Part shown: one piece after another, positions 20,572 to 50,523 of the stretch
Layout of the letters: each line of letters starts with the position of its first letter
Position numbering within the stretch: position 1 is the stretch's first letter
Origin: a virus
Lineage: Duplodnaviria > Caudoviricetes
Virus record (IMG/VR): IMGVR_UViG_3300037851_000284
Location: 64,001 to 128,000 of that record
Length of the DNA stretch: 64,000 nt
Reading direction: 5' to 3' (one strand)
The notes under the pieces: generated by a model
Database searches by the model: none
What the model saw: the letters and a program-made list of their open reading frames with translations, nothing else
Told to the model about the DNA's origin: nothing
Position numbers and translations under genes: made by a program

Positions 20572-22056
20572 ATGTCAAAGAAAAGAGTTCTCTTTGTAAG
20601 CGATAGCATAAAGAGAAAGACCGGATATGCTATTGTTGCGAGAAATATAATAAAAAATTTAGTACTAACCAACAAATATGAAATAGGACACCTTGGTTTA
20701 GCAGATATACCCACCCCTGTAGAATTACCTATTCATTACTACACTCAGTTAAAGGACCACAACGGATGTTGTAAGCGTGGGGTATTAATTGAACATGTAA
20801 ATAATACCATATCCCCCGAGATTAAATTCTTAGTACCACAACAGAACACAGGTATAGTAAATGAGCACCCAACTAAGGGGATGTGTATCAGGGGACCAAA
20901 TATTAATCAAGATCACTATGGATATGATTCGGTATACTACGTGATACAACATTTTAAACCAGATATAGTTATACCAATCAATGACCTATGGGGATTGTAT
21001 AATATTAATCATTTAAAAAACAGAAAGTGTTACAAGTTTATACCATATCTAGCTATAGATAGTGATTGTTTATTCCCAATATTACAACCACCAGAAGGAA
21101 GACAGGGACTTCCTCCGATTGATACTATTAGAACTATAGGAACCACAAATAAGACAATAGTATTTACTCAATGGGCTAAAGATGTAATAAACAAAACATG
21201 TAGAGTAGTAACTAATGGTAGAGAATTAAATAACATAGAGATAATATCTCATGGAGTAGATACTCAAATTTGGAAACCACTTCCAGAAGAAGAGAAGAAA
21301 GCAAACAGAGAGAAATACTTTGGTATAAAAGACAATACTTTCTTAATTGGGGCCGTTGCTAGAAACCAACCAAGAAAGAGACTAGACGCTATATTCATGA
21401 CTATGCGTAGATTCATAGATAAAAACTATGAAAAATACGGTAGAAAGATAATGTGTTATTTTCATTGCTCTTTAGAGGATGCTATAGGATGGGATTTACA
21501 GTGGATGTCTTCTTATTATAACCTAGTTGATAGGGTGATATTTGATAAGAATCTTAAACCAGGACTTGGCCCATCGGATGAGCAACTAAATCAAATAATA
21601 AATTGTTTTGATGCTCACGTATTATTTTCTAACTCTGGAGGATTCGAGCTCCCAATGCTAGAAACCGCCGCCGCTGGGATACCCAACCTTGTATCAGACT
21701 ATTCTGCTCACGCAGACTGGGGACGAGGAACCTTAATGTATGCAAGAATTGGGGCATTTGAACACGAACCAAGAACGGGATTCGTAAAAGGAATAGTAGA
21801 TATAGATAGTGCCGCCCACCAATTAAAGCTATTATATGACAGTAAAAAACTATGTGAAGACTATAGTAAAAGAGGAATAGCTTTAGCAAAGAAACTAGAA
21901 TGGTCTAATCTGTGTAAACAATGGGAAGATAGTCTAGATAAAGTGGACATATCTGATTTAGAAGAAGGAAGATATGAAAAGTCGGACGTATTCCCTAATG
22001 GCGAACCACCAAAACAAGATTTCTCACAATTTAACCTTCAACACTTTCCAGAATAA
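20572..22056 (+). CDS. GT-B (GT4-like) glycosyltransferase
   Basis: RVLFVSDS....TGYAIVAR; ISHGVD; GAVARNQPRKRLD; SNSGGFELPMLETAAAGIPNLVSDYSAH. Confidence 0.9.
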   Translation: MSKKRVLFVSDSIKRKTGYAIVARNIIKNLVLTNKYEIGHLGLADIPTPVELPIHYYTQLKDHNGCCKRGVLIEHVNNTISPEIKFLVPQQNTGIVNEHPTKGMCIRGPNINQDHYGYDSVYYVIQHFKPDIVIPINDLWGLYNINHLKNRKCYKFIPYLAIDSDCLFPILQPPEGRQGLPPIDTIRTIGTTNKTIVFTQWAKDVINKTCRVVTNGRELNNIEIISHGVDTQIWKPLPEEEKKANREKYFGIKDNTFLIGAVARNQPRKRLDAIFMTMRRFIDKNYEKYGRKIMCYFHCSLEDAIGWDLQWMSSYYNLVDRVIFDKNLKPGLGPSDEQLNQIINCFDAHVLFSNSGGFELPMLETAAAGIPNLVSDYSAHADWGRGTLMYARIGAFEHEPRTGFVKGIVDIDSAAHQLKLLYDSKKLCEDYSKRGIALAKKLEWSNLCKQWEDSLDKVDISDLEEGRYEKSDVFPNGEPPKQDFSQFNLQHFPE

Positions 22057-22943
22057 TGTCTAGAATAATATTCGTATCTGATTTCTTTCTAAGTGAAATT
22101 AGACGCGGTGCTGAAACATGTAACGACGCGTTACTTTATCATCTAAAAGATTATGATATAACTACAGTAGAATCAAGTAGTTTAAACTATATAGACTCTA
22201 CGAAATTTTATATCGTAACAAACTTCTGGAACTTACCAGACCAAGCAAAGAGCTCGTTGATTAAGTACAAAAACTATTTAATATACGAACACGACCATAA
22301 ATATATCAGAACTAGAAACCCGTATAGATTACCTAATGGACAAGAAAACCCAACAGGTATAGTACCGAAACACGAACTTATTAACGTAGATTTCTATAAG
22401 AATGCTAAGGTAGTAATATGTCAAACTAGGTGGCATGAGGAACAGATATTGTCCAATATAGAATGTATAACTACTAATATTCATGGGTCCTTTTATACAG
22501 AAGAAGATCTAGATTTATTAGAAAAGTACTGCGCCTATCCAAAAACTATAGATAAATATGCGTTTTTTAATGACGCAGAATTTATATATACTTCTAATGG
22601 AAGAATAATGCAACAAGGGGATAATATCAAGAATAAAAAGGGAGCACTAAGATACTGCATAGACAATAAGTTATCCTATATGCCCATTCCAAGAATAAAC
22701 AATAAAGAAAAATTCTGGGAGACAATTACTAAGTTTAAAAACTTTATATTCTTACCAGACATACCAGAGACTTGTTCTAGATTATTAATAGAAACCAAGA
22801 TGCTTGGATTAAACGTAATTACTAACAGAAACAGTGGAGCCTATTGGGAACCTTGGTTTAAACTAAATGGTAAAGAATTAACAAATGAATTTAGAAATAA
22901 TATAATACCTAATGCTATAAACAAATTCAAGGGATACTTATAG
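22056..22943 (+). CDS. GT-B-like glycosyltransferase
   Basis: IIFVSDFF...GAE; C-terminal FIFLPDIPETCSRLLIETKMLGLNVITN (E-x7-E motif). Confidence 0.7.
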   Translation: MSRIIFVSDFFLSEIRRGAETCNDALLYHLKDYDITTVESSSLNYIDSTKFYIVTNFWNLPDQAKSSLIKYKNYLIYEHDHKYIRTRNPYRLPNGQENPTGIVPKHELINVDFYKNAKVVICQTRWHEEQILSNIECITTNIHGSFYTEEDLDLLEKYCAYPKTIDKYAFFNDAEFIYTSNGRIMQQGDNIKNKKGALRYCIDNKLSYMPIPRINNKEKFWETITKFKNFIFLPDIPETCSRLLIETKMLGLNVITNRNSGAYWEPWFKLNGKELTNEFRNNIIPNAINKFKGYL

Positions 22944-23167
22944 TGAAACCAATACTATTTGCCACTACCTATAAAGGAAATAAGATTTATATAAATGCTA
23001 ACTATGTGATAGGATTTCAAGATTGCGATACAAACACCGTAAATTTACACACAATCATAAAAACAGTTGAAGGAACTACCGACTATGCTACAGAAACACC
23101 AGAAGAAATATATAAAATTATAAACGATTGTCTACATCGGAGCGAAAATGATATACATATTAGTTGA
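22943..23167 (+). CDS. hypothetical protein (74 aa; FlbD-like pattern)
   Basis: GTG start overlapping previous stop; IYINANYV.....T......TETPEEI pattern. Confidence 0.55.
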   Translation: MKPILFATTYKGNKIYINANYVIGFQDCDTNTVNLHTIIKTVEGTTDYATETPEEIYKIINDCLHRSENDIHIS

Positions 23168-23384
23168 ACAAACATTAAATGGTACAGTAACAATGAATTC
23201 TCAAATTTCTGGAATAAAAGCTAAATCATTCAATGACGCAGTAAGAAAGCTACTATCCTTACAAACTATGAGCAAAGCTAAAGATATTAAAAAGAGTAGC
23301 AAAGAATTAACATTTGTTATTGAAGGAGAACTATTTAACACAGCGGGAACGATGAGTAACCAACCGTTAAATATTATAATATGA
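23148..23384 (+). CDS. hypothetical protein (78 aa)
   Basis: GGAG SD; ATGA coupling. Confidence 0.55.
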   Translation: MIYILVEQTLNGTVTMNSQISGIKAKSFNDAVRKLLSLQTMSKAKDIKKSSKELTFVIEGELFNTAGTMSNQPLNIII

Positions 23385-24154
23385 TAAAACTACCAAATCT
23401 GTCAGTGGAACAAACATTAGAAATAATTCCTAATAAAGTCATATTATTAGGTTTTGTTGGAAGCATCGCACACGGCACATATGTACCAAAGAACGACCCT
23501 AATTCTATAGACGATAAAGACATACTAGGTATTTGTGTAGCGGATAAGTCTGTATATCTAGGATTAAAAACCTTCGAACAAAAGGAATGTAAAAAAGGAG
23601 AATGGGATTCAGTAGTATATGAAATTAAAAAATTCTTTAGCCTATTATTAAAACAGAATCCTAATGTAATAGGACTGCTATGGCTGCAGGACAAAGATTA
23701 CATTCACATATCAAATAATGGAAGATTAATACTAGATAATAGGGACCTATTCGTATCGAAACTAGCATACCATTCATTTATTGGGTATGCTCATGGGCAA
23801 TTACATAGAATGACCAATGGAGCTTTTGAAGGGTACATGGGCGAAAAACGTAAAAAATTGGTAAAACAGTTTGGTTTTGACACGAAAAACGCCAGCCATC
23901 TAATTAGGTTACTACGAATGGGAATAGAGTTCCTAACAGATGGGAGACTGAATGTATTTAGGGAAGATGCTTCAGAACTAAAAGACATTAAACAAGGAAA
24001 ATGGTCTTTGGAAAAAGTAAAAAAAGAAGCAGAATCACTGTTTACACTAGCCAGAGAAGCATATGTAAGGTCTAATTTACCCGAAAGACCAAATTATAAA
24101 AAGGCCGAGGAGATATTAATTCATATATTAGAAAAAGAGATTGTTAATGCCTAA
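23381..24154 (+). CDS. Pol-beta-superfamily nucleotidyltransferase (RlaP/YcgL-like)
   Basis: VGSIAHGT...DDKDILG; YEIKKFFSLLLKQNPN; KNASHLIRLLRMGIEFL. Confidence 0.8.
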   Translation: MIKLPNLSVEQTLEIIPNKVILLGFVGSIAHGTYVPKNDPNSIDDKDILGICVADKSVYLGLKTFEQKECKKGEWDSVVYEIKKFFSLLLKQNPNVIGLLWLQDKDYIHISNNGRLILDNRDLFVSKLAYHSFIGYAHGQLHRMTNGAFEGYMGEKRKKLVKQFGFDTKNASHLIRLLRMGIEFLTDGRLNVFREDASELKDIKQGKWSLEKVKKEAESLFTLAREAYVRSNLPERPNYKKAEEILIHILEKEIVNA

Positions 24155-24887
24155 AGATTATAGTATTATAATAGGAGTATATGCCGGTATAAATTGGTTA
24201 TCTCAGATTATTGACTCTTGTTACCGTCAGTGTATATCTCCTAACAACATATACTTATGGATTAATAAAAATCCAGATCAACCTATTAGTATAGATACCT
24301 TGCAACAAAAATATTCTGATATAAGAATTATATTGAATAATAGGAATCTTGGAGTATATAGCCGTTTTAGCGCAGCTATGTTAGATAACTCAAGTAGATA
24401 TCTAATCTTAGACGATGATACAATTCCTGCATCTAATTGGATAGGTAATTGTTATGATACACTAGAAGTAGTAGGAGAGGATGCCATTCTAGGATATAGA
24501 GGCATCAGATTAAAACCTGACGCATTATATGATGTGGAAGCTTATGAAAAAGGAACTCCAGAAATAACAGAAGTAGACCTAGTTGGTCACGCGTGGTTTG
24601 TAAAAAAGAAACATATTCTAGCAATGTTTGAAGACCAGCCAGTTAATTATTTTAATGGAGAAGACACGCACTTAAGCGCAATTAACCAAATAAAATACGG
24701 AACAAAGACTTATGTTCCAGCACAACCATTATCAAAACCTAACTCGTGGGGATCAATTAAGCAGCATCTAGGAGCACAAGCTGGAAGATTATCAACAAGC
24801 TTGGGACCTTCTGAGCATTTTAAACAGAGACAAGAAGTTAATAGTTATTGGATAAGTAAAGGCTGGAGACCATTATATGTCAGATAG
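24141..24887 (+). CDS. GT-A (GT2-like) glycosyltransferase
   Basis: NLGVYSRF; LILDDDTIP (DxD); VDLVGHAWF; GEDTHLS. Confidence 0.8.
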   Translation: MLMPKDYSIIIGVYAGINWLSQIIDSCYRQCISPNNIYLWINKNPDQPISIDTLQQKYSDIRIILNNRNLGVYSRFSAAMLDNSSRYLILDDDTIPASNWIGNCYDTLEVVGEDAILGYRGIRLKPDALYDVEAYEKGTPEITEVDLVGHAWFVKKKHILAMFEDQPVNYFNGEDTHLSAINQIKYGTKTYVPAQPLSKPNSWGSIKQHLGAQAGRLSTSLGPSEHFKQRQEVNSYWISKGWRPLYVR

Positions 24888-26649
24888 TTTAAGAGTAGCA
24901 GATTATATAGTGCAACGATTAGTAGAACATGGTATAACACATGTTTTTACTATAACTGGTGGCGGAGCTATGTATTTAAACGACGCCTTTGGTAAGAATA
25001 AAAACATTATGTGTATATATAATCATCATGAACAAGCTTGTGCTATAGCAGCCGAAGGATATTTTAGATCTACAGGGAAGATTTGTGCTGTATGTATTAC
25101 TACCGGTCCAGCTGGATTAAATACTCTTACTGGAATAATGGGACAATGGACTGATTCCATTCCGGTAATATATATATCAGGACAGGTTAACACTAATTTA
25201 ATGATTTCTTCGTATAATAATAAACTGAGGCAATTAGGTGATCAAGAATGTAATATCACAGAAATAGTTAGGTCACTAACTAAGAGCGCAGTAATATTAA
25301 AGAATCCTACTTATTGTAAGTCGGTAATAGATAATGCTATAGCAACTGCTACGAGTCCGAGGATGGGTCCAGTTTGGATAGACATTCCTTTAGATATACA
25401 AAAACAAGTAATAGACTCTTCCGAGTTAACAGAGATAAAAGAAGTAGTAACTCCAGTGAATGTTGATTCTAAATCAATAAAATATGTGACATCAGCGATA
25501 TTAAAATCCAAGAAACCACTAATAATAGCTGGTCACGGAATTAGGTTATCAAACAGTCTAGAGTTATTCAATTCCTTTATATCAAATGCCAAGATACCAA
25601 TAGCTACAACCTTTAATGGGTTTGACCTAGTTCAAGAAGATAACCCATTATATATAGGGAGAATAGGAACTATAGGACAACGCGGAGCTAACTTTTCGTT
25701 ACAGAACGCAGACTTAGTATTATTTCTGGGGACTAGAAATAATCTGAGACAAATAGGATATAACTGGAATACTTTCGCTAAGAAAGCCACAAAGATAGTA
25801 GCAGATGTGGATGAGTACGAATTAAATAAACCAACAGTTAAGCCAGATATTGGTATTAGAATGGATATAAATCTATTCTTAAAAGAATTACTAAAGGAAC
25901 ATATTAAATTTGAGTCTAATGATTGGTTAAATTGGTGTAAAAAATTATATAATAAATATCCTGTAATGTTACCTGAGTACGATAAATGTTTTCCTCTGAA
26001 CCCATATAAGTTTTCTAGAATTCTATCAGAAGAAGCAAAAGATTCCATAATAATATGTGGTAATGGTTCTGCTTGTGTCTGTATGTTTCAAGCAGGAGTA
26101 GTTAAAAATAATAATAGATTTTTCTGGAACGCTGGTTGTGCATCAATGGGTTATGATCTTCCAGCAGCCATAGGAGCAAGTATAGCTAATCCAGATAAGC
26201 ATGTGATATGTATAACTGGAGATGGTAGTATAATGATGAATTTACAAGAATTACAAACTATAAAAAATTATAAACTACCAATAAAGATATTTATATTAGA
26301 TAATTCAGGATATCATTCTATCAGACAGACTCAGAAAGCATATTTTGGAGAAGAGATATTTGGATGTGATAAGTATTCAGGAGTAGAACTTCCAAACTTT
26401 AGAGATATAGCTACTGCTTTTAAAATTGATTCGTGGATAATAAATAGTCCAGAAAGGTTGAATTCATCGATTAACGATGTGCTGTCGTGTTCTGGACCAA
26501 TTATATGCAAAGTCACAATACCAAATGACTATTCGTTCTCTCCAAAATTGGCACCTAGAATAAAAGACGGAATAATGGTGCCTTCTTCTATAGAAGATAT
26601 GTGTCCGTTTTTAAGTGAAAAAGAAATGAAAGAGAATATATATGAATAA
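24877..26649 (+). CDS. thiamine-diphosphate-dependent enzyme (acetolactate-synthase-like, YerE-like)
   Basis: VFTITGGGAMYL; HHEQACAIAAEGY; TTGPAGLN; PVWIDIPLDIQ; SMGYDLPAAIGA; ThDP motif GDGSIMMNLQE...N. Confidence 0.92.
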   Translation: MSDSLRVADYIVQRLVEHGITHVFTITGGGAMYLNDAFGKNKNIMCIYNHHEQACAIAAEGYFRSTGKICAVCITTGPAGLNTLTGIMGQWTDSIPVIYISGQVNTNLMISSYNNKLRQLGDQECNITEIVRSLTKSAVILKNPTYCKSVIDNAIATATSPRMGPVWIDIPLDIQKQVIDSSELTEIKEVVTPVNVDSKSIKYVTSAILKSKKPLIIAGHGIRLSNSLELFNSFISNAKIPIATTFNGFDLVQEDNPLYIGRIGTIGQRGANFSLQNADLVLFLGTRNNLRQIGYNWNTFAKKATKIVADVDEYELNKPTVKPDIGIRMDINLFLKELLKEHIKFESNDWLNWCKKLYNKYPVMLPEYDKCFPLNPYKFSRILSEEAKDSIIICGNGSACVCMFQAGVVKNNNRFFWNAGCASMGYDLPAAIGASIANPDKHVICITGDGSIMMNLQELQTIKNYKLPIKIFILDNSGYHSIRQTQKAYFGEEIFGCDKYSGVELPNFRDIATAFKIDSWIINSPERLNSSINDVLSCSGPIICKVTIPNDYSFSPKLAPRIKDGIMVPSSIEDMCPFLSEKEMKENIYE

Positions 26650-27457
26650 CTTAGAACAAAGAATGGTGTCCCTCTTAAATAACCTAAAAAATAATCATGG
26701 GGTAATAGGAGTTAAAGCAGAATTTGAAGCTGAGGGTACTAGATTAGAGGAAGCTTTAAGATTAAAAGAAGTTGTAACACAAGCCAACCTAGATTTAACT
26801 ATTAAAGTTGGAGGCTGTGAGGCCTTAAAAGATATGTTTGATGCTAAATCTATAGGTGTTACTCAAATAGTTGGCCCAATGATAGAGTCAGCATATGCTT
26901 TGAAAAAATTTATAAAGGCTTGCAAAATATGTTATGTTGGAGAAGAACAATATCATGTAAACTTTTTAATAAATATAGAAACAAAGCTCGGAATAAATAA
27001 TATAGAGAGTATTTTATATTCTCCGGAAGTAGAAGATTTAGACGGAGTAACTTTAGGAAGAGTTGATTTAATTGGTTCTTTGGGTAGGGAAAGAACTTAT
27101 GTAAATAGTGACGAAATAATGTCTTATGCAAAAAAAGCATTTTCGTTATGTAAAAGAAAAGGTATTCTATGTACAATTGGAGGAGGAATAGACAAGGACT
27201 CTATTCCGTTTATTAGAGAATTATTTGTTGAAGGATTATTACATAGATATGAGACAAGAAAAGTAATATTTGATTGCGATGTTGCCTTAAGAAATAAACC
27301 AGAAGAAGGTCTATTAAAAGCAGTGAGTTTCGAACTTATGTGGTTGAAAAACAAATGTAATTTCTATAAGTCTATTCTGGATGAAGATTCTACAAGACTA
27401 CAAATGCTGGAAAAAAGATATAATTGCCTATTAGAAAAGATAGGATACCTAGCATAA
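26642..27457 (+). CDS. HpcH/HpaI aldolase / citrate-lyase-like protein
   Basis: KAEFEAEG; IKVGGCEA; VGPMIES; INIET; GVTLGRVDL. Confidence 0.75.
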   Translation: MNNLEQRMVSLLNNLKNNHGVIGVKAEFEAEGTRLEEALRLKEVVTQANLDLTIKVGGCEALKDMFDAKSIGVTQIVGPMIESAYALKKFIKACKICYVGEEQYHVNFLINIETKLGINNIESILYSPEVEDLDGVTLGRVDLIGSLGRERTYVNSDEIMSYAKKAFSLCKRKGILCTIGGGIDKDSIPFIRELFVEGLLHRYETRKVIFDCDVALRNKPEEGLLKAVSFELMWLKNKCNFYKSILDEDSTRLQMLEKRYNCLLEKIGYLA

Positions 27458-28621: not shown

Positions 28622-29384
28622 AGGAGACCTAATAAAATTATACAACCATCTTAAAAAAGACGAACCTTTTGCCTTTAACAGATTCTCAGATGGTGAAGAA
28701 TTTATATTACAGAACAAATATCTAGAAATAAATGATTCTCAAGTTATAGCTGGAGAGACCGTATTTAATAAAGGGTTCTCAAAAGAAGACCATAAAGTAT
28801 TCGATCCTGAGAAACATCAATGGTTTAGAGAAAGACTTTTACAGGCCTTCTATTGGGAACAAGATAGATATTATAAAGGTATACCCTGTAGATGTTGTGT
28901 TGGAGAAGAAAGATTTAAGTACCTATATAATCTAGGTAATAGTGATAAAAATCAATACATTACATGGGCTAATTTATTAGTAAATGGTAACTATTCTTTT
29001 TTTATAGATACTTTTATACCTGAGTTTGCTAAAAAAGATGTTGTAATTATATGTAATCATAAAGCAAATATACAAAAACTTCCATTTAAAGTAGTAAAAG
29101 ACTTCAGAGTTGGTGATAATTGTATGATTAATGATTATAATATAATAGAAAAAATTAAAGAATTTACTGGACAAACCGATGGTAATTTATTATATTTATT
29201 CTCAGCATCAGCCCTAAGCAAAGTAGCAATACATCAATTATTCAAATTTAATAACAAAGGTTTTTACATGGATATAGGAACAACCCTAAATTACTATCTA
29301 GATATGTCATTGGACAGAGACTATCTTAAGAATAAATGGCTTGGAACTAACTACGATATGGGAAATAGAATGTGTATATGGTAA
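28608..29384 (+). CDS. GT-D-like (DUF1792-like) glycosyltransferase-fold protein
   Basis: FAFNRFSDGE motif; FSASALSK; YMDIGT. Confidence 0.6.
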   Translation: MKTFRGDLIKLYNHLKKDEPFAFNRFSDGEEFILQNKYLEINDSQVIAGETVFNKGFSKEDHKVFDPEKHQWFRERLLQAFYWEQDRYYKGIPCRCCVGEERFKYLYNLGNSDKNQYITWANLLVNGNYSFFIDTFIPEFAKKDVVIICNHKANIQKLPFKVVKDFRVGDNCMINDYNIIEKIKEFTGQTDGNLLYLFSASALSKVAIHQLFKFNNKGFYMDIGTTLNYYLDMSLDRDYLKNKWLGTNYDMGNRMCIW

Positions 29385-43121: not shown

Positions 43122-43122
43122 A

Positions 43123-43770
43123 ATGGATTTTATAAAGGTAGTAGTTGAAAGGGAACATCCACTAGAGTCTCCTGATTTTATAGACCCAGATGGATGTATC
43201 AATGATAATAATAACAATAATGGGTTTCTAGAACAGTTAAACTTATTAATGTTAAATCAACCTTATTCTCTATTAGATTTGGGTTGCGCTGGAGGAAAAC
43301 TAGTAGTAGATGCTTATAACCAAGGAAAAACAGCAGTTGGTCTAGAAGGAGGAAACGAAGAAGCAATCTTAACAAGAGGAGCAGGAAGACAAAATTGGAT
43401 TAACTACAAGAATAAATGTTTATTCTTTGCTGATATATCAAAAAACGTAGATATTTCAGATATAAATAATAATATATACAAATTTGATATTATAACAGCT
43501 TGGGATTTTTTAGAACACCCCGCTCCAGAAGAAATACCCTTTGTTATAGATAATATAAAGAAACATCTAAAAGATACTGGTATGTTTATTGGAACCATTA
43601 ATCCGAGCGAAGGATACAAACACCGCTGTGCGCGAGACAAAAAATGGTGGAATGAAACATTTAAATCTAAAGGGTTTAAGGTTTGTAGTTATCCTTTAAC
43701 AGTAACACCAAGGCCGTATGTAGGGTTTAACGGAATTGATTATGCTGCGTGTTTTAGATTGGAGAACTAA
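43123..43770 (+). CDS. class I SAM-dependent methyltransferase
   Basis: LLDLGCAGG; GLEG; FDIITAWDFLEH; W..WW. Confidence 0.85.
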   Translation: MDFIKVVVEREHPLESPDFIDPDGCINDNNNNNGFLEQLNLLMLNQPYSLLDLGCAGGKLVVDAYNQGKTAVGLEGGNEEAILTRGAGRQNWINYKNKCLFFADISKNVDISDINNNIYKFDIITAWDFLEHPAPEEIPFVIDNIKKHLKDTGMFIGTINPSEGYKHRCARDKKWWNETFKSKGFKVCSYPLTVTPRPYVGFNGIDYAACFRLEN

Positions 43771-45005
43771 TGAAATTAACAAGCGACCCTAGGTGGAGTC
43801 CTAGCTGTAGAAATTGCAACAATCATCCATTAGTTCCTATTTTAGATTTAGGTATGCAAGGATGGTGTAATGATTTTATTACAAATGAACAAATTGGAAA
43901 AGAACCTACCTATAGCTTAAAATTAAACTACTGTAAGGAATGCGATATGTTACAATTGACAACTACAGTTCCAAAAGAAAGGATGTTTAAGCATCACGAT
44001 TATCTATCTGGAACAACAAAAACTCTAAGAGAGCATTTTTATAATATAGCCAAGGAGAATATAGACCAATTTAAATTATCAGGTAAGGACATAGTTCTGG
44101 ATATAGGTGGTAATGATGGAACTCAGTTGGCCCAATATAAAATACTCGGATTGAGTAATTTAATAAACGTAGAATCAGCAGATAACATAGCAAAACTTTC
44201 CAGTGCCGCAGGAATATATACTATAAATGATTTTTTTAATGATAAGTTAGCATACAATAACTTTAATCCAGGAGAAATACAGTTAATAAATGCAGCAGGA
44301 GTATTCTTCCATCTCGAAGAACTACACAGTGTTATAAGAGCTATAAAATATTTACTGGCTAGGAATGGGATATTCGTAGTACAATTTATGTATGCTGGTA
44401 TGATGATTGAAAAAGGCACTTACGACATGATTTATCACGAACATTTATTATATTATACACTACACAGTCTAGAAAATCTATTAAACCCATACGGTTTAAA
44501 GGTTTTCGACGCTTATGAATCAGATATACATAGTGGTAGTGTAATAGCAAAACTTTGTCACTCTAGCGCAAATATGGAACCAACAAAAAGATATTTAAAT
44601 TTAAAAGAAAAGGATAAAGAATATACTTTTGAAAAGTTCAAGAAGTTTGGACAAAAGATTGTTTCTGATAGATATAGATTAAGAAAATTTATAAAGGATT
44701 TAAAGGGAGAATCTAAAAAGATTTATGGGTATGGTGCTCCAGCTAAAGGAAATACTTTACTAACATATGAAAAAATTGATAATAAGCTATTAGATAAGTT
44801 AGTAGAGATAAATCCGCTGAAAATAGGAAAATATACTCCGGTAACACATATCCCAATAGTTCAGGAATCTAAAGAGGATTTACCAGATTATTATCTATTA
44901 TTAGCACATAATTTCGATAAAGAGATATTAGAAAAGAATAAAGAAATAACAGATAAAGGAGTAAAATTCATAGTTCCCTTCCCAACTCCAAGGATAATAC
45001 CATGA
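43770..45005 (+). CDS. NDP-hexose 3-C-methyltransferase-like protein
   Basis: CRNC...LDLG.Q; C..C.MLQL; LDIGGNDG; YDMIYHEHLLYY; YGYGAPAKGNTLL; LLAHNF..EI; FIVPFP. Confidence 0.9.
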   Translation: MKLTSDPRWSPSCRNCNNHPLVPILDLGMQGWCNDFITNEQIGKEPTYSLKLNYCKECDMLQLTTTVPKERMFKHHDYLSGTTKTLREHFYNIAKENIDQFKLSGKDIVLDIGGNDGTQLAQYKILGLSNLINVESADNIAKLSSAAGIYTINDFFNDKLAYNNFNPGEIQLINAAGVFFHLEELHSVIRAIKYLLARNGIFVVQFMYAGMMIEKGTYDMIYHEHLLYYTLHSLENLLNPYGLKVFDAYESDIHSGSVIAKLCHSSANMEPTKRYLNLKEKDKEYTFEKFKKFGQKIVSDRYRLRKFIKDLKGESKKIYGYGAPAKGNTLLTYEKIDNKLLDKLVEINPLKIGKYTPVTHIPIVQESKEDLPDYYLLLAHNFDKEILEKNKEITDKGVKFIVPFPTPRIIP

Positions 45006-45943
45006 GAAAAATATTAATAACAGGAGCCCTAGGTTTTATAGGATCAGTATTGGTAAAAAAGTTATTATTAGACGGTTACAATTCTATTACTGTTCTAGAT
45101 AATATTAAATATAGGCAGATCGGACCCATATATGATTACGACGACCCAGATATTACTTTTGTATACGGAGATGTAAGAGACACTAAACTATTAAAAACTC
45201 TTGTTACACATAATGATGTAATAATACCATTAGCAGCAATAGTAGGAGCTCCTGCTTGCGATATGTTTCCCGATGAGGCCACGGATGTTAACCATATACA
45301 AATAAAAAATATAGCAGAGTGGTTATCTAGAGAACAAATGTTAATTTATCCTAATAGTAATAGCGCTTATGGTACATCAAAGATTACAGTAACAGAAGAC
45401 AGTCCAAGAAGACCACTTAGTCATTATGCTAAAACTAAGTGTTTTGCTGAAGATGAAGTATTACATGGAGGAAATGGTGTAGTTTTAAGATTAGCTACAG
45501 TATTTGGACTTTCTCCTAGAATGCGCATGGATTTGTTAGTTAACGATTTCACCTATAAGGCTTATACTGATGGGTATTTAGTTTTGTTTGAATCAAGCTT
45601 CAAAAGAAATTATATACATATACAAGATGTGGCTAACACATTTATATTTATGATGGATAATTATAAGAAATGTAATAATAAAGCATTCAATGTTGGTTTA
45701 TCTAATGCTAATTTATCCAAACTTGAGTTAGCACAGGTTATTAAGAAATATCTACCAGAATTGGTAATAAAAGATGAAGAGTTTAAGAAAGACGTAGATA
45801 AGAGAAATTATATAGTATCTAATGAGCGTCTGGAATCCATGGGTTGGAAACCAACCAAGACTGTAGACGATGGTATTCAAGAACTACTTAAAGTTTGTCC
45901 AATTATAAAGGCCCATAACGATAGAAACTTTACCAATTTATAA
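45002..45943 (+). CDS. NAD-dependent epimerase/dehydratase
   Basis: ITGALGFIG; LAAIVGAPAC; YAKTK; LRLATVFG..PRMR.DLLVN. Confidence 0.9.
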   Translation: MRKILITGALGFIGSVLVKKLLLDGYNSITVLDNIKYRQIGPIYDYDDPDITFVYGDVRDTKLLKTLVTHNDVIIPLAAIVGAPACDMFPDEATDVNHIQIKNIAEWLSREQMLIYPNSNSAYGTSKITVTEDSPRRPLSHYAKTKCFAEDEVLHGGNGVVLRLATVFGLSPRMRMDLLVNDFTYKAYTDGYLVLFESSFKRNYIHIQDVANTFIFMMDNYKKCNNKAFNVGLSNANLSKLELAQVIKKYLPELVIKDEEFKKDVDKRNYIVSNERLESMGWKPTKTVDDGIQELLKVCPIIKAHNDRNFTNL

Positions 45944-46076
45944 GGAAACTAAATAAATTCTAATATAAAACATCCAATATGTTTTGGTGAACTTAAATAT
46001 ATAAAAAATAATACTTATATGCGCACAGTATATAATTTATTGAATAATCAGGAATTAAAAATGTAAGGATAGAAGA

Positions 46077-46991
46077 ATGAACGCTATAATTACAGGGTTT
46101 ACAGGATATCTAGGAAAACATTTAACAAAATTCTTAAAGAACTTAGGATGGAATCTTACTGGAATATGTTCTCAGTATCCAAGCTTGTTTTGTCCTGCTA
46201 GTGAGATAAACGATTGTATTAAAGAAGATACTCCTGATGGGTCTGTTGATTATATATTTCACCTTGCAGCGGTAGCTAAAGCTGGAAATTGGCATGAGTA
46301 TCATAAAGGAGACGTTTGGACACAAAACCAAAAGATTAATACCAATATTCTAGATTACTGGCTTAAATATCAACCTCAAGCCAAACTAATAGCTATGGGT
46401 ACTTCGTGTAGTTACGACTCTTCTTTGTCACTAACAGAAGATAACTATCTTAATGGAAAACCAGAAGACAGTTTAGCTTCCTATGCTTATACAAAACGCA
46501 TGCTTCTAGTTGGATTACAATCAATTTCTTCCCAATATGGATTAAAATATAATTATCTAATACCTTCAACTATTTATGGACCTAACTTTGTTAAAAACGA
46601 CAGTCATTTTATATTTGATTTAATTAAAAAGATATATGCTGGGTCTAAAGGAGATACAGTAGAGCTATGGGGAAACGGGGAACAAAAAAGAGAGCTAATT
46701 TATATAGATGATGTTGTTAAAACTATATATAATACTTTAAATCTAGACAATGAAATACTAAATATAGGTTATGGTAAAGAATATAGTATAAAATCTTATG
46801 CTAAATTTATATGTAATTATTTAAAATATGATTTTAATAATATTCACTTTAATGAAAAGAAGTTTGTTGGTGTGAAATCAAAATTATTAGATATTACACG
46901 CATACAATACTTTGTTCCAGATTACATATCGTCGCTAATTGGACTATCTGACGGATTACAAAAAACTATAGACTATTATAGGAGTACATAA
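46077..46991 (+). CDS. GDP-L-fucose synthase-like epimerase/reductase
   Basis: ITGFTGYLG; HLAA; GTSCSY; YAYTKR; PSTIYGP; WGNG...RELIYIDD. Confidence 0.85.
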   Translation: MNAIITGFTGYLGKHLTKFLKNLGWNLTGICSQYPSLFCPASEINDCIKEDTPDGSVDYIFHLAAVAKAGNWHEYHKGDVWTQNQKINTNILDYWLKYQPQAKLIAMGTSCSYDSSLSLTEDNYLNGKPEDSLASYAYTKRMLLVGLQSISSQYGLKYNYLIPSTIYGPNFVKNDSHFIFDLIKKIYAGSKGDTVELWGNGEQKRELIYIDDVVKTIYNTLNLDNEILNIGYGKEYSIKSYAKFICNYLKYDFNNIHFNEKKFVGVKSKLLDITRIQYFVPDYISSLIGLSDGLQKTIDYYRST

Positions 46992-47515
46992 TGAAAACAG
47001 AAGTGGTTGGAAAAATTAATTTTGAAAGAACGGATAACACTAGGGATTTAACTGAACTAGCTGAACTAATAGAAAAAGAGGTTGGAGAAAGAAAAGCAAC
47101 AATATCACCAGAGCGCAGATATCTACCAACATTAGCAGAACTTATAGATAGATTAAGCATATTACAACTAAAAGAAGTATTCATACCAGAACATAAAGAA
47201 GAATATGCTAAAGAAATTAAAGATATTATGCACGATATAGACATAATATTAAATGAAGGACAGATAATTTTAGATGCTAAAACGATCAGAGCAATTATAG
47301 TATTAAGCCAGATGAATTTACATATTTGGTTTAATGAAAGTGAAGCCAGAAAAGGAAATAAAGAAGGAAATAAACTAGAACTAACCCACGGTTTGAACGG
47401 GATTAGAAACACATCTAAAAATATAATACAAGATATTTTAACTGGAGAAAATAGAAAAGATTATAAAATAGATTGTCTAGCTGCCGAATTTAAAACATGG
47501 GAGATTAGTTGGTAA
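46991..47515 (+). CDS. helical hypothetical protein (DUF4254/DUF6165-like motif)
   Basis: TLAELIDRLSILQLK motif; N..IW..E; AGGAG SD. Confidence 0.55.
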   Translation: MKTEVVGKINFERTDNTRDLTELAELIEKEVGERKATISPERRYLPTLAELIDRLSILQLKEVFIPEHKEEYAKEIKDIMHDIDIILNEGQIILDAKTIRAIIVLSQMNLHIWFNESEARKGNKEGNKLELTHGLNGIRNTSKNIIQDILTGENRKDYKIDCLAAEFKTWEISW

Positions 47516-48084
47516 TGCGAAAAAATTATGCTGGACAAATAATAAATGGAGTAGAACCATTAGAATTCATAGAAATAAGTAACCACTCCAGTAAATGGAA
47601 ATGTAAATGTGTATGTGGAAATATTTTTAATGCTTGGATAAATGGACTTCAAAAAGGAATTAAATGTGGATGTAAAAGTGGATGTAAAAAACGCTTAACT
47701 GGAAAGAAATCTCCTTCTTGGAAAGGAATAGGAGATTTACCAGCAAGTTTTATAGCAAATATAAAATCACAAGCGAAATTTAGAAATATAGAATGGAATT
47801 TGGATATAGAATATTTATGGAAATTATTTTTAGAACAGAATAAAAAATGTAAATATTCTGGATTAGAATTAAATTTCACAGAAAAATATTCAGAAGCGAT
47901 CCATAATAAAGGAACAGCCTCATTAGATAGAATAGATTCCGATAAAGGATACATTATTGGAAATGTTCAATGGATTCATAAAGATATAAACTTTATGAAA
48001 CAAGAATATAGTCACAAAAGATTTATAAATTATTGCGATTTAATATCAAATTATAGCGGCTCTAATAGGAAAGATGATGTGTAG
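47509..48084 (+). mobile_element. free-standing HNH-type homing endonuclease gene
   Basis: WKCKCVCGN...CGC N-terminal domain; KCKYSG; SLDRIDSDKGY..GNVQWIHKDINFMK. Confidence 0.85.
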
Positions 48085-48101
48085 GAAACTATTCTAATTA
48101 T

Positions 48102-49097
48102 ATGTTACTAATAGCTCTAGGAACACGCCCTGAGTGGATTAAGATACAACCACTAATTCCCCTTCTAAAAAAAGAAGGAATACCATATAAATTGCTACAT
48201 ATTGAACAACATCAAGATCTTGTGAATATTTCGGAAGAACATGATACTCTGCCATTATATGACATATCGTCTGACCGTCTTACTAACATTCATTTAAACG
48301 TGCTAGAACAGGCTGAGAACTGGCTTAAAGGAGTAAAGGCAGTCTTGGTACAGGGAGATACTAGCAGCGCTTATAGCATGGCATTGGCCGCCTTTATAAG
48401 AAAGGTACCAATAGTACATCTAGAAGCTGGTTTAAGGACATATAACATGGAAAATCCTTATCCGGAAGAATATAATAGAAGAGCTATCAGTTTAATGGCT
48501 AAGGTACACTTATGTCCAACTAACCAAAATGCTCAAAATCTTGTAAAAGAGGGAGTAAGGGCATCAAAATATGTAGTAGGAAATACAGTTCTAGACACTA
48601 TAGATTCTACTCCTTTAAATGAATCAAATTTAGTTCTGGTAACTATGCATCGTAGAGAAAATTGGCCAATTATTAATGATTGGTTTACGGCCATTAAAAA
48701 ATTAGCTAAACAGACTAGTTCATTAACCTATTTAATAGTAATGCATCCGGCAATAAAATATCCATCTGATTTTAGTAGTTCTAATATATCACTCATAACT
48801 CCACTTAGCAGAGAAGATACTATTAATTATATAAAAAAGAGCAAAATGATTATTACAGATAGCGGAGGTATACAAGAGGAGGCTTGTTATCTACATAAAA
48901 AGGTTATTATTTGTAGAAAAGTAACCGAAAGACCAGAGAGTATATGGCTTAATGCTACATTATGTAAAACTCCAGATTATTTATGTAGAGCCTTTTGGAA
49001 AATGTTAAATAAAAGACTAACTGATTACCAGTGTCCTTATGGTGATGGGCACGCAAGAGAAAAAATAATAGAAATACTTAAAAAGGAGATAGTATGA
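48102..49097 (+). CDS. wecB: UDP-N-acetylglucosamine 2-epimerase (non-hydrolysing)
   Basis: GTRPEWIK; VQGDTSS; HLEAGLRT; PEEYNR; GNTVLD; TMHRREN; TDSGGIQEEA; ERPE; PYGDG. Confidence 0.93.
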   Translation: MLLIALGTRPEWIKIQPLIPLLKKEGIPYKLLHIEQHQDLVNISEEHDTLPLYDISSDRLTNIHLNVLEQAENWLKGVKAVLVQGDTSSAYSMALAAFIRKVPIVHLEAGLRTYNMENPYPEEYNRRAISLMAKVHLCPTNQNAQNLVKEGVRASKYVVGNTVLDTIDSTPLNESNLVLVTMHRRENWPIINDWFTAIKKLAKQTSSLTYLIVMHPAIKYPSDFSSSNISLITPLSREDTINYIKKSKMIITDSGGIQEEACYLHKKVIICRKVTERPESIWLNATLCKTPDYLCRAFWKMLNKRLTDYQCPYGDGHAREKIIEILKKEIV

Positions 49098-49366
49098 ATT
49101 TTAAATTAAGACACGATAGACTATTACTTACACCCATAGAAAAGACCAAAACTGAAGGAGGAATATTACTTCCTGATAATAACAATGACCCATGGATGTA
49201 TGGACTAGTTGAAGCGGTTGGGCCTAAAATAGAAGACATTAATATAGGAGATGTAGTATGCTTCTATAAGTGTGATGCTAATCGTATAGAAGTAGAAGGA
49301 AGAAGTTATATTCATTTGAGAGATGGACACATAGTTGGAATACAACTATCACCAAAGGAAGAATAA
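49094..49366 (+). CDS. groES: GroES/Cpn10 co-chaperonin
   Basis: L.HDRLLL...KTEGGILLPD; G.VEAVGP; GDVV; I.GI. Confidence 0.9.
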   Translation: MNFKLRHDRLLLTPIEKTKTEGGILLPDNNNDPWMYGLVEAVGPKIEDINIGDVVCFYKCDANRIEVEGRSYIHLRDGHIVGIQLSPKEE

Positions 49367-50523
49367 TGATTAATATATATTCACCAATTAATATATTGGG
49401 TTACGGGATTCATTCCTGTAATATGATTAAAGCTCTTATTGAAAATGGACAGGAAATTAACCTAACTCCAATAGGAGATATACAACTAGACCATTTCTTT
49501 GAAATGTATATAAAGGATGCAGAAAAGAATAAAGATAGATATTCTGCTAAAGAACCATCATTATTTTTATTTCATGATGAATTTAGCAATCAAGCTGCTG
49601 GAAATCCGTTATTTACGTTCTCTATATTTGAAACTTCTCAAATAAAAACCCGTTCGTTTAATATGTTAGAAAACGGACCAACGGATGTTATATTAACGAC
49701 TACGTCAGGACATCTAGAATATCTGGTTAATCAAAAAATAACAAAACCCATTGAAGTAGTAAATGAAGGAGTAGACGAAACTCTTTATAATACGATACCA
49801 ATAGATAAATATCTAGACACTAAAAAGTTTACCTATATCACTATGGGTAAAAAAGAGGAAAGAAAGAACACAGACCTATTATTAAGATTATTCATTTTTA
49901 ATATGAAGGAAAAAGATGTAGCATTAATATGTCATACGTTTAATCCGTTCATAAATAAAACTAAAGACCACCCATTTAAAAACCTAGCTTGTTGGTCGGG
50001 AGTTAATCCGCTTAAACACGGGTTTGAATATAAAGGATTTAATGGTAAGGCGCATTTATTTATATATAAAAATTGTGAAATTTATTTTACAGTACCTACT
50101 ATTCATATATCAAACATGCCTTCTTTATTACATTCAGCCAATGTAGGTATACAAGTATCTAGAGGTGAAGGATGGGACCTTCCAGCAACAGAACTGATGG
50201 CCTGCGGTATTCCAATAATAGCAACAAACTGTCTAGGTCATAAAGAGTATATAAATGACAACTGTCCGGATATTCAGAAGGAATTAATAATTAAGAAAGA
50301 AACCTCTACTATAGCTCATGATGGTATGTGGTTTAATGGCGACCAAGGAATTTGGGATAATCTTAATACATTAAAATTAGAAGAATTACTAACATATACC
50401 TTTGATAATCAATCAAAATATGCTAACAAAAGCGATGAATTGGCTGATTATATGTCAAAAAAGTATTCTTGGAATAACGCCGCTCAAAAATTAATAGAAG
50501 TAATAAAGAAATATAGAGGCTAA
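49366..50523 (+). CDS. GT-B (GT4-like) glycosyltransferase
   Basis: PINILGYGIH; NEGVD; GKKEERKNTD; SRGEGWDLPATELMACGIPIIATN. Confidence 0.85.
   Translation: MINIYSPINILGYGIHSCNMIKALIENGQEINLTPIGDIQLDHFFEMYIKDAEKNKDRYSAKEPSLFLFHDEFSNQAAGNPLFTFSIFETSQIKTRSFNMLENGPTDVILTTTSGHLEYLVNQKITKPIEVVNEGVDETLYNTIPIDKYLDTKKFTYITMGKKEERKNTDLLLRLFIFNMKEKDVALICHTFNPFINKTKDHPFKNLACWSGVNPLKHGFEYKGFNGKAHLFIYKNCEIYFTVPTIHISNMPSLLHSANVGIQVSRGEGWDLPATELMACGIPIIATNCLGHKEYINDNCPDIQKELIIKKETSTIAHDGMWFNGDQGIWDNLNTLKLEELLTYTFDNQSKYANKSDELADYMSKKYSWNNAAQKLIEVIKKYRG

Follow-up and report, generated by a model that had tools for sequence, protein, structure and literature searches.

A variable sugar-gene island in a large freshwater myovirus, with a predicted acyl-branched deoxysugar pathway and virion proteins as the likeliest acceptor

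Large phages are known to carry large, polymorphic clusters of sugar genes (PMC7824862), and these clusters are functionally unassigned. Glycosylation of virions is also known, from mycobacteriophages: O-glycosylation was shown on capsid and tail proteins for Che8, Corndog, and Myrna (Freeman et al. 2023, as cited in PMC12619734). Here we describe an island of about 30 kb (positions 20572-50523) from a large, uncultured freshwater phage. The island lies within a stretch of 64,000 nucleotides, which we will call the window, that corresponds to bases 64001-128000 of the IMG/VR virus record IMGVR_UViG_3300037851_000284. (We name genes by their first position in the window.) We propose that the island is a phage-owned, serotype-like, variable locus for glycan synthesis that works in the cytoplasm, and that virion proteins are the likeliest acceptor; we give this reading a probability of about 0.5. 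What distinguishes the island is its size (33 genes), its module for an acyl-branched sugar, the inteins in its sugar enzymes, its conserved core and swapped middle together with a natural deletion strain, and a candidate signal for the acceptor.

The 33 open reading frames (ORFs) of at least 60 amino acids in the island are all on the + strand, and 27 of the 32 junctions between them overlap. Only two intergenic gaps are longer than 20 nt (30417-30553 and 45943-46077). So an earlier interpretation of the letters alone, which we will call the sequence-only reading, was correct in describing more than 30 co-oriented and coupled genes. The enzyme classes that it listed were also found by family matches: four short-chain dehydrogenases/reductases (SDRs; 31842, 36025, 45002, and 46077, by profile searches), four methyltransferases (33893, 43123, and 43770 by profile, and the FkbM-type 42378 through its homologues), two radical S-adenosylmethionine (SAM) enzymes (34989, with SPASM, and 38526, which is B12-binding), a thiamine diphosphate (ThDP) enzyme, an aldolase, a GNAT, and WecB. 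It had counted about ten glycosyltransferases. The class is right, but the count is rather 6-9: six are well supported (20572, 22056, 24141, 37011, 40697, and 49366) and three are probable (27424, 37664, and 41449). It had also listed two pyridoxal phosphate-dependent DegT enzymes. Both proteins (29770 and 30553) do have the DegT fold, but 30553 is an E1-type dehydrase and not an aminotransferase. Besides the E1 nature of 30553, the sequence-only reading missed two inteins, the HNH gene 47509, the RlaP-type gene 23381, and the Cpn10 gene 49094. Our families were assigned using Pfam, NCBIfam, or PHROGs, except that 22056 and 40697 were assigned with AlphaFold2 (AF2) and Foldseek, and that 27424 and 37664 are leads from Atlas features.

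The pathway at the heart of the island has its described counterparts in bacteria. In the reaction of YerE, pyruvate provides an acetyl carbanion, which is added at C4 of CDP-4-keto-3,6-dideoxyglucose. Related enzymes use hydroxy-keto acids that are made by an aldolase; this, followed by the action of a reductase, gives erwiniose, caryophyllose, and gastriose their long branches (Steitz et al. 2022; PMC9306805).

The phage's ThDP enzyme (24877..26649) contains three Pfam ThDP domains. Among proteins in the PDB, it matches JanthE (8rph) with E = 9e-102, versus 9.8e-70 for the best acetolactate synthase; JanthE has been described as a YerE-like enzyme (PMC12188165). The closest homologues of the phage protein are bacterial (57-59% identity) and lie beside ddh-type genes in three loci. 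The gene order in these loci is an E3-like reductase, E1, NTP_transferase, 4,6-dehydratase, (SDR), the ThDP enzyme, and an HpcH-type aldolase of 271 amino acids, and each of the three loci includes a Wzx- or Wzz-type gene. (A fourth homologue, which is 52% identical, is in a different polysaccharide locus.) One of the bacterial loci, L038, has 51% GC content. Relative to L038, the phage's ThDP enzyme is 59% identical, its aldolase is 58% identical over 268 amino acids, and its E1 is 44% identical. The order of the ThDP and aldolase genes is the same in the phage and in L038, and the phage's aldolase gene (26642..27457; HpcH/HpaI type, PF03328, E = 1e-12) overlaps the end of the ThDP gene. Furthermore, L038 has an SDR gene between those for the dehydratase and the ThDP enzyme, and its product shares 31% identity with an SDR of the phage (36025..37023; PF01370, E = 1.8e-33). 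The phage's SDR is a candidate for reducing the side chain or the 4-keto group, which would be a YerF-like role. YerE-like carboligases are expected to be encoded together with enzymes for an NDP-4-keto-3,6-dideoxyhexose and, for long branches, with an aldolase. E1, a 4,6-dehydratase, and the adjacent aldolase provide this association in the island, and it is also seen in the three bacterial loci. By both sequence and context, then, 24877 is a YerE-like carboligase, and its predicted activity is the transfer of an acyl group to C4 of a 4-keto sugar, with the aldolase predicted to supply the hydroxy-keto-acid donor.

The enzyme that would remove the oxygen at C3 is also present. The protein encoded by 30553..31845 scores above the cut-off for the NCBIfam equivalog for RfbH (NF011936, 458.6 bits versus 423) and is similar to the E1 structure 3bcx (E = 5e-99), so we annotate it as an E1-type (RfbH/DdhC/AscC), pyridoxamine phosphate (PMP)-dependent NDP-4-keto-6-deoxyhexose 3-dehydrase. 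As in E1, a histidine replaces the lysine in the stretch PAHHITMGEGG, which is identical to that of E1. The cysteines of the cluster are also kept (DCCDALG and C-x-C...C), with a longer spacer before the last cysteine. Just downstream is a 4,6-dehydratase of the SDR superfamily (31842..33899), which is RmlB-like: it matches TIGR01181 with 264.7 bits over two stretches, versus 50.7 bits for the CDP type. The two stretches are separated by an intein of 372 amino acids.

Overall, the gene set matches, by homology, the bacterial pathway for C4-acyl-branched 3,6-dideoxyhexoses such as yersiniose, erwiniose, and caryophyllose. As judged from its genes, the phage holds the tailoring core of that pathway, at the phage's own base composition (the island's GC equals that of the rest of the phage, 30-34%), and the parts for activation, electron transfer, and export were dropped. 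Full-text literature searches did not find any report of an acyl-branched-sugar pathway in a virus or phage. The other enzymes in the island predict further C- and O-methylation, N-acetylmannosamine (ManNAc), and an N-acetylated amino sugar, with the exact product inferred. So the methylated and branched glycan of the sequence-only reading is also what we would predict from the C-methyltransferases and the acyl-branch module, as a prediction only.

The N-acetylated amino sugar is expected because of a GNAT acetyltransferase (29372..29767; PF13508 and PF00583) and, next to it, a short DegT-fold protein (29770..30417; 215 amino acids; PF01041, E = 2.8e-14). The short DegT protein retains the Schiff-base lysine motif and aligns to the region of PseC around the catalytic lysine. 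Short relatives of 198-212 amino acids are found in two other contigs, L039 (16154-16792) and L040 (20055-20651), and L039 also has the pairing of GNAT and short DegT. Because proteins of the same kind recur, we view the short DegT as a distinct family rather than a truncation. It looks like a family of mini-aminotransferases that recurs in phage glycan islands.

Two of the island's enzymes are interrupted by inteins. The intein in the dehydratase (372 amino acids, nt 32199-33314) is inserted within the catalytic motif, between S and TDEVYG. It begins with cysteine (Cys1), ends with GN, is followed by threonine (+1), and includes two LAGLIDADG-like motifs. The other intein (280 amino acids, nt 39168-40007) is within the CxxxCxxC motif of a B12-binding radical SAM enzyme (38526..40697), where it separates CPYS from CKFC. 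It begins with cysteine, ends with His-Asn, and is followed by cysteine; it matches Intein_splicing (E = 4e-17) as well as HNH_3 and NUMOD3. Both insertions have the features of class 1 inteins with homing endonucleases, and both are predicted to splice. Because they sit in catalytic motifs and their splice residues are intact, we argue that the genes that bear them are functional. Inteins usually are reported from genes for replication, recombination, or packaging, and they settle in conserved sites of important proteins; here they have colonized enzymes of sugar metabolism. Apparent inteins are present in a related phage as well. The homologue of 20572 in the relative G002 (described below) has 1253 amino acids and matches Intein_splicing, LAGLIDADG_3, and Hom_end_hint, which indicates an intein in a glycosyltransferase (L030:8286-12047). 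And the primase-helicase of G002 (L030:835-5442) has 1535 amino acids, versus 808 for the phage studied here, and aligns in three blocks, which implies two insertions that are probably inteins.

To find relatives of this phage (whose genome we label G000), we searched IMG/VR with its terminase and tail sheath. This identified G001 (230,193 bp) and G002 (213,094 bp), which are both complete, with terminal repeats. Their terminases are 68-72% identical to that of G000, and their sheath proteins are up to 70% identical. In both relatives, the corresponding position, which is flanked by the primase-helicase and by the convergent genes for the distal tail, is occupied by a co-oriented block of genes. 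The conserved anchors of this block are three small genes, 19269, the glycosyltransferases 20572, 22056, and 49366, 50525, and a ClpP-like gene. Other anchors are shared with one relative only: 27424 (49% identity) with G001, and WecB and Cpn10 with G002. The middle of the island is another matter: in the relatives it spans 15-17 kb and has almost no homology to G000. In G001, the middle encodes a DegT protein, a CTP_transf_3 cytidylyltransferase, a HAD phosphatase, an RraA-type aldolase, two radical SAM enzymes, a GNAT, a GT8 and a GT9 glycosyltransferase, and a protein with a weak MptE/Maf-like match. In G002, it encodes two SDRs similar to GDP-mannose dehydratase, three radical SAM enzymes, methyltransferases (including a CmcI-like one), and a GT2 glycosyltransferase. 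In a more distant relative, the 191-kb marine contig L040, a GT4-conflict glycosyltransferase, a GT1-family glycosyltransferase, and a 22056-like gene are adjacent, and another sugar cassette follows. By gene content, the architecture is that of a serotype-like locus, with conserved core transferases and a variable set of sugar genes. Because the flanking glycosyltransferases are kept while the middle is swapped, each relative probably has its own type of glycan.

Variation is also seen between strains of the phage itself, which we detected in three freshwater metagenome runs, each belonging to a different study; one run is probably where the record came from. In another (run X2, an independent freshwater metagenome), contigs that are at least 99% identical cover the island. 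But in the majority strain of X2, position 30951 is joined to 37115. This deletion of 6,163 bp (30952-37114) has an out-of-frame junction. It takes away most of E1 (its C-terminal part), all of the dehydratase, a C-methyltransferase, the SPASM enzyme, and an SDR, and the beginning of the glycosyltransferase 37011. The depth of coverage in X2 is near zero across 31.3-36.7 kb, while run X3 covers this segment. The X2 strain also lacks the HNH gene 47509: 47492-48067 is skipped and 19 nt are found instead. Near this site (window 47492-48184), the initial ~85 nt of wecB are rich in substitutions and small insertions, resembling the co-conversion tracts that flank homing sites. Each of the two joints in X2 is seen in a single contig of low depth; the gap in depth agrees with the 6.2-kb deletion.

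Genes for export and for sugar activation are missing. A hydropathy scan of the 262 ORFs called in the G000 genome did not identify any multi-pass membrane protein of 200 amino acids or more, and nor did a scan of the relatives' islands. The hydrophobic stretches in the island are three single segments, all of which are within Rossmann or ThDP folds. Profile searches of G000, G001, and G002 found no match to Bac_transf (PF02397) or to Wzx-type flippases (PF01943); the Wzy and ABC families were not searched with profiles. For WecA/MraY-type transferases (PF00953), the only match in the three genomes has 15.5 bits and contains internal stop codons. And no sugar-1-phosphate nucleotidyltransferases (PF00483 or PF12804) were found in G000. 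The sequence-only reading had noticed both absences in the island, and its proposals to predict membrane segments and to search the rest of the genome for nucleotidyltransferases lead to the same answer for the whole genome. Since the phage appears to lack a sugar-1-phosphate nucleotidyltransferase, we infer that it draws on the host's pools of NDP-glucose and UDP-N-acetylglucosamine (UDP-GlcNAc).

If the island builds a glycan in the cytoplasm, what would the acceptor be? The sequence-only reading suggested that the adjacent operon encodes virion proteins, and this agrees with our annotation. The genes at 52193..63772 (- strand), which converge on the island, are the terminal genes of the structural block, beyond the baseplate genes; they form the distal end of the virion structural operon, and their baseplate-distal and fibre-like products are candidate acceptors. 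These proteins are 30-55% identical to their counterparts in the relatives, and none of the tail genes in the window matches any Pfam or PHROG family. In the distal tail proteins (116-147 kb of the genome), the dipeptide Ser-Gly occurs 149 times, versus 62 expected (2.4-fold); the reverse, Gly-Ser, occurs 75 times. Proteins encoded on the plus strand show no excess of Ser-Gly (75 observed, 75 expected). The relatives' tail proteins do (150 versus 67 in G001 and 175 versus 72.5 in G002; L029 and L031-L034), and over the three phages the enrichment is 2.3-2.4-fold. The baseplate and fibre proteins of T4, by comparison, show no excess (53 observed, 50 expected). In alignments of orthologs, Ser-Gly is also the common dipeptide whose positions are most conserved (52%, compared to 30% overall and 25% for other Ser-x). 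Distant homologues of the glycosyltransferase 20572 are encoded near virion genes in two siphophages: in Synechococcus phage S-CBS4 the gene sits between those for the portal and the head protease, and in Tetrasphaera phage TJE1 it directly precedes the terminase genes. In addition, 82-100% of the Atlas matches for the transferase families are viral, membrane steps are absent throughout the lineage, and the nearest neighbours of two of the transferases by structure or sequence include chlorovirus B736L and Mimivirus R699. Taken together, these observations point to the phage's own tail proteins as the likeliest acceptor, at what we consider to be even odds.

Several findings weigh against this proposal. 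The residues around Ser-Gly are hydrophobic at -3/-4 and at +3; because this pattern resembles strand-turn-strand, the enrichment may reflect protein structure and not a glycosylation sequon. The control with T4 is also just one phage. As for the chemistry, the G000 genome contains no NAD_binding_1 or Fer2 domain that could indicate the E3 partner of E1 (DdhD/AscD), while the bacterial ThDP loci do have an E3-type reductase, so a host reductase must be assumed. Characterized E1 enzymes act on CDP sugars, and given that the phage's dehydratase is RmlB-like, the nucleotide carrier and the exact product are uncertain. The deoxygenation arm also seems to be dispensable, as the majority strain in X2 is missing the entire arm. 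Finally, the island shares its orientation with the replication genes and converges on the late structural operon, of which it is not a part, and the closest homologues of its sugar pathway (the ThDP enzyme, the aldolase, and E1) are from bacterial surface-polysaccharide loci that include Wzx, Wzz, Wzy, and Bac_transf genes.

These last two points would fit with remodelling of the host's envelope. The soluble glycosyltransferases might act on undecaprenyl-linked or lipid A-core intermediates of the host, and the host's Wzx/Wzy or ABC exporters would then display the product. This could block superinfection or keep progeny from adsorbing to debris, as was proposed for the 'LPS' (lipopolysaccharide) clusters of cyanophages. 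The sequence-only reading had argued from the absence of membrane components to a cytoplasmic acceptor. A set of soluble enzymes without export genes is indeed what we found, but the step to the acceptor is weaker than was stated. In O-antigen pathways, too, the transferases on the cytoplasmic side are usually soluble or peripheral proteins. The phage's transferases could likewise use the host's lipid carriers, and the lack of membrane genes leaves a route via a host exporter. The published view of the polymorphic sugar clusters of jumbo cyanophages is also that they diversify surface polysaccharides (PMC7824862). However, profiles identified neither an initiating phosphoglycosyl transferase nor a flippase in three genomes, two of which are complete, and no polymerase or ligase was noted there either (Wzy was not among the profiles); the host's exporters would also need to accept a foreign unit. 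Wzx flippases are reported to favour their cognate O unit (PMC6436433). Furthermore, the island's conserved transferases are from mostly viral families, and the enrichment and conservation of Ser-Gly in tail proteins would be left unexplained. On balance, we consider envelope remodelling to be a serious but doubtful alternative.

Other targets seem much less plausible. The sequence-only reading offered the phage's DNA as a second acceptor, and several soluble GT-B and GT-A transferases without an exporter might suggest glycosylation of a hydroxymethylated base to protect against restriction, as in T-even phages. But no ThyA-type dCMP/dUMP hydroxymethylase (PF00303) and no TET/JBP enzyme (PF12851) was matched in this genome, which is 95% complete; the sole DNA methyltransferase that we identified is Dam, not a C5 enzyme; and roughly 30 genes for branched and methylated deoxy sugars exceed any known sugar modification of DNA. 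We view this idea as very improbable. Pathways for the sugars of natural products typically feature C-methyltransferases, B12 radical SAM enzymes, 3-dehydrases, and branched deoxy sugars, and a secondary metabolite was suggested for a second cyanophage cluster (PMC7824862). So we also considered that the island might make a small glycoside, either soluble or lipid-linked, in the infected cell (such as a secondary metabolite, a signalling glycolipid, or a toxin). This is improbable as well: the island lacks any gene for forming an aglycone (a polyketide, nonribosomal peptide, terpene, or aminocyclitol synthase), its 6-9 transferases imply that the product is an oligo- or polysaccharide and not just a mono- or diglycoside, and its conserved core glycosyltransferases and variable middle resemble a serotype locus. 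Lastly, a block of bacterial genes might have been captured and be decaying, with no role in infection. The loss of 6.2 kb from a natural strain and the mobile passengers within the block (the HNH gene and two inteins) could be viewed in this light, but each of the 33 frames is open, with tight coupling between neighbours, the GC content of 30-34% is like the phage's and unlike the 51% of the nearest bacterial locus, the catalytic residues and the intein splice residues are intact, and the locus is kept in every relative that we examined. Inert cargo is hard to credit.

Returning to glycosylation of virion proteins, we propose the following mechanism. The precursors would be NDP-glucose and UDP-GlcNAc from the host's pools. 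The intein-bearing, RmlB-like 4,6-dehydratase would form an NDP-4-keto-6-deoxyhexose, and the E1-type PMP/Fe-S dehydrase would remove O3, with the reduction supplied by a host reductase. The HpcH-type aldolase would use pyruvate to make a hydroxy-2-keto acid, which the YerE-like ThDP enzyme would decarboxylate so as to place the acyl group on C4. SDRs would then reduce the product, and the C-, O-, and B12-radical-SAM methyltransferases would tailor it. In other arms of the pathway, WecB would provide UDP-ManNAc, and the short DegT and the GNAT would provide an N-acetylated amino sugar. The 6-9 soluble GT-A and GT-B transferases would assemble the glycan: 20572, 22056, and 49366, which are conserved in the lineage, probably attach the core to the acceptor, and the variable middle would set the outer sugars. 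The acceptors would be, above all, the neighbouring baseplate-distal and fibre proteins, possibly at Ser-Gly, and the glycan would mask or tune the surface of the particle.

A more specific version is that, in this lineage, an O-glycan covers the baseplate and fibre proteins. A core built by the three conserved glycosyltransferases (possibly on Ser-Gly) would carry strain-specific outer sugars, which in this phage would include a C4-acyl-branched, methylated 3,6-dideoxyhexose, and cassette swapping would change this 'virion serotype'. We hold this version quite tentatively, and it is unlikely to be right in full.

We now describe the remaining genes of the island, all of which are on the + strand. 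The three core glycosyltransferases include a GT-B protein of 494 amino acids (20572..22056), which matches the 'glycosyltransferase' family phrog_2170 (E = 3e-30) and is 63-64% identical to its homologues in G001 and G002. Its sole match among PDB sequences is B736L from a chlorovirus (3oy2; E = 2.4e-8). The second, at 22056..22943, has 295 amino acids and matches neither Pfam nor PHROGs, but its AF2 model (pLDDT 94) indicates a compact GT-B fold, with Foldseek probabilities of 1.0 to Gtf3/GtfC, PimB', and SenB. Its identity to proteins of G001 and G002 is 48-71%, and homologues are found on about 60 metagenomic contigs, many of which are 100-230 kb. One such homologue (P0140, from the contig behind L039), which is found on phage-like contigs of up to 229 kb, has its GenBank entry under a metagenome-assembled genome of 'Candidatus Omnitrophica bacterium', which could be a binning artefact or a hint about the host. 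The third core enzyme (49366..50523) is a GT4 glycosyltransferase with the GT-B fold (PF00534, PF13692, and PF20706) and is 54-62% identical in G001 and G002. Neither it nor the aldolase 26642 had a match in the PDB sequence search.

Among the other well-supported glycosyltransferases, 24141..24887 is a GT2 (GT-A) enzyme (PF00535, E = 1e-5, above the cut-off), and 37011..37688 is a GT-A enzyme of the Nucleotid_trans family (PF03407, E = 2.4e-8, above the cut-off). The product of 40697..41452 (251 amino acids) has the GT-A fold: its AF2 model (pLDDT 92) matches SpsA, B4GALNT1, TarS, POMGNT1, and R699 of Mimivirus with Foldseek probabilities of 1.0. KdsB and IspD are also among its fold matches, and we considered that it might be the absent nucleotidyltransferase. 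We rejected this, as it has a GT2-like N-terminus and lacks a glycine-rich loop, and transferases rank at the top. An invariant acidic motif is present as well. As for the three probable glycosyltransferases, 27424..28422 is a probable GT-A enzyme, with Atlas scores of 0.96-0.98 to viral clusters that have GNT-I, MGAT2, or GT2 domains; 37664..38536 is possibly GT2-like, which is a weak lead (0.95-0.96 in Atlas, with some of the viral clusters bearing GT2); and 41449..42387 may have a GT-B C-terminal domain, with a sub-threshold match to PF13524 (E = 1.2e-4; 22.5 bits versus a cut-off of 25).

The methyltransferases include 43770..45005, which has the architecture of TylC3-type NDP-sugar C-methyltransferases (Methyltransf_14, E = 3.9e-38, and a Methyltransf_13 zinc domain, E = 4.8e-18), and its distant paralogue 33893..35005, which resembles sugar C-methyltransferases (Methyltransf_23, _14, and _13 domains). 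Between 42378 and 43121 is an FkbM-type methyltransferase; it has no direct Pfam match, but homologues at 40-55% identity carry PF05050. It is followed by a class I SAM methyltransferase (43123..43770; PF13489, E = 7e-9). The radical SAM/SPASM enzyme is at 34989..36032 (PF04055, E = 1e-22; PF13186, E = 1e-8). The intein-bearing 38526 resembles class B methyltransferases (PF02310 and PF04055), and its best matches in NCBIfam are HpnJ, PhpK, and BchE. Of the remaining SDRs, 45002..45943 is an epimerase or reductase (PF01370, E = 4e-28), and 46077..46991 (PF01370, E = 5.9e-40) is similar to GDP-L-fucose synthase, of the 3,5-epimerase/4-reductase type (this is its top match in NCBIfam, E = 3e-29, below the cut-off). 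WecB (48102..49097) is a non-hydrolysing UDP-GlcNAc 2-epimerase (TIGR00236, 236 bits versus a cut-off of 210) and is 51% identical in G002.

Four genes in the island are not sugar genes. The RlaP-type protein (23381..24154; PF10127, E = 4.4e-14) has the pol-beta nucleotidyltransferase fold and is probably outside of the glycan pathway. RlaP-type proteins are associated with RNA repair, and G001 has an RtcB ligase directly after its primase-helicase (L028:2954-4192). The HNH gene (47509..48084; phrog_3322, E = 1.3e-24) encodes a free-standing homing endonuclease, a mobile passenger. A 67-amino-acid ORF (30417-30620) with an N-terminus like that of ribbon-helix-helix proteins occupies the gap at 30417-30553 and extends into the beginning of E1; its product is possibly a small regulatory protein. 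And 49094..49366 encodes a Cpn10/GroES-like co-chaperonin (PF00166, E = 6e-14). Cpn10 and a ClpP-like protease (50817-51401) flank the conserved GT4 gene; ClpP is kept in both relatives, and Cpn10 in G002. ORFs without an assigned family are at 28608-29384, 46991-47515, and, for the small ones, 22943-23384 and 28397-28621. None of the family-less ORFs are paralogues of one another.

The record itself is a single contig of 219,054 bp, with 33% GC and an estimated completeness of 95% (CheckV). To the 5' side of the island are genes for a family B DNA polymerase, the Dam methyltransferase, and the primase-helicase. The structural genes form a minus-strand block (at ~116-210 kb of the genome) that encodes TerL, the portal, a protease-like protein, the major head protein, the tail sheath, and a gp6-like baseplate wedge. 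Given these genes, we classify the phage as a myovirus, and with an IMG/VR record of 219 kb and this structural module, the phage origin claimed by the sequence-only reading is borne out. We did not find cultured relatives: megablast with 19 kb of the island gave no match among 50,697 phage records, and the DNA polymerases of the nearest cultured phages are only about 23% identical. Sphingomonas phage PAU was ruled out as a relative by its different gene order and content. Scanning IMG/VR with the ThDP protein gave nothing, and with the primase it gave only relatives at 23-24% identity. The genome has 20 tRNA genes (ARAGORN), which are grouped at 14170-36343 of the genome, with none in the window. 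No RNA run contains the island. We also looked for promoters that might indicate timing by k-mer enrichment in intergenic regions, which gave no usable motif; the top k-mer was from the T-loop of tRNAs.

Until now, C4-acyl-branched 3,6-dideoxyhexoses have been known solely as components of LPS and lipo-oligosaccharides of bacteria. Whatever its target, the island extends the pathway for these rare sugars to viruses. If the glycan is on virions, then this would be serotype-like variation of the phage surface, comparable to that of bacterial O-antigens, with a bearing on host recognition, grazing, immune clearance, and phage engineering. The lineage is also a clean test case, with three complete or nearly complete genomes, swapped cassettes, a deletion strain, and Ser-Gly-rich tail proteins as candidates. 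And the YerE-like carboligase, its aldolase partner, the C-methyltransferases, and the B12 radical SAM enzyme are compact, soluble enzymes that might be of use in glycoengineering or biocatalysis.

Among known systems, the bacterial pathways for acyl-branched 3,6-dideoxyhexoses (YerE/YerF, ErwE/ErwF/ErwI, caryophyllose, and gastriose; PMC9306805) share with the island a YerE-like carboligase near an aldolase, E1, a 4,6-dehydratase, SDRs, and methyltransferases. Unlike them, the phage's version is viral and lacks E3, a glucose-1-phosphate nucleotidyltransferase, and Wzx/Wzz/Wzy partners (Wzy was not profile-searched). Also, the phage's dehydratase is RmlB-like and not of the CDP type, and its aldolase is of the HpcH/HpaI type while ErwI is of the BphI type.

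The 'LPS/capsular polysaccharide' clusters of jumbo cyanomyoviruses such as P-SSM2 (Iyer et al. 2021; PMC7824862) are similarly large, with several SDR paralogues and glycosyltransferase families, are polymorphic between related phages, and have functions that are predicted from their genes. These clusters are recognized by 1-4 SDRs with several glycosyltransferase families and by their polymorphism; our island has 4 SDRs and 6-9 glycosyltransferases from at least 4 families, and it is swapped in G001 and G002. L040 links the cyanophage-type islands to the present one, as its GT4-conflict, GT1-family, and 22056-like genes are direct neighbours. With 33 genes in 30 kb, the island is about twice the size of the 15-gene cluster of P-SSM2, is from a different lineage, and adds the acyl-branch module, two radical SAM enzymes, and two inteins. 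The full set of the cyanophages includes a PfkB kinase and a HIGH-type nucleotidyltransferase; in G000, PF00483 and PF12804 are absent, and PfkB and CTP_transf_like were not searched.

Like our island, the cassettes of mycobacteriophages comprise phage-encoded soluble transferases and methyltransferases, which in the present phage are only proposed to decorate virion proteins. Those cassettes are a few genes within the structural operon, with no exotic donors, whereas the island has 33 genes on the opposite strand, convergent with the structural genes. Giant viruses (the capsid glycans of chloroviruses and the fibril glycans of Mimivirus) also have their own nucleotide-sugar tailoring and cytoplasmic glycosyltransferases, without membrane export. 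The sequence-only reading had compared the island to their glycosylation clusters; their hosts are eukaryotic, and the likeness is at the level of folds only (to B736L and R699, at about 10% identity or E = 1e-8), which does not imply a shared ancestry of the clusters. Finally, bacterial loci for O-antigen or capsule serotypes differ from the island, which has no Wzx, no initiating transferase, and no multi-pass protein, and which is carried by a lytic-type myovirus. But the island is organized as they are, with conserved anchors at both ends and a centre that can be swapped for different sugars.

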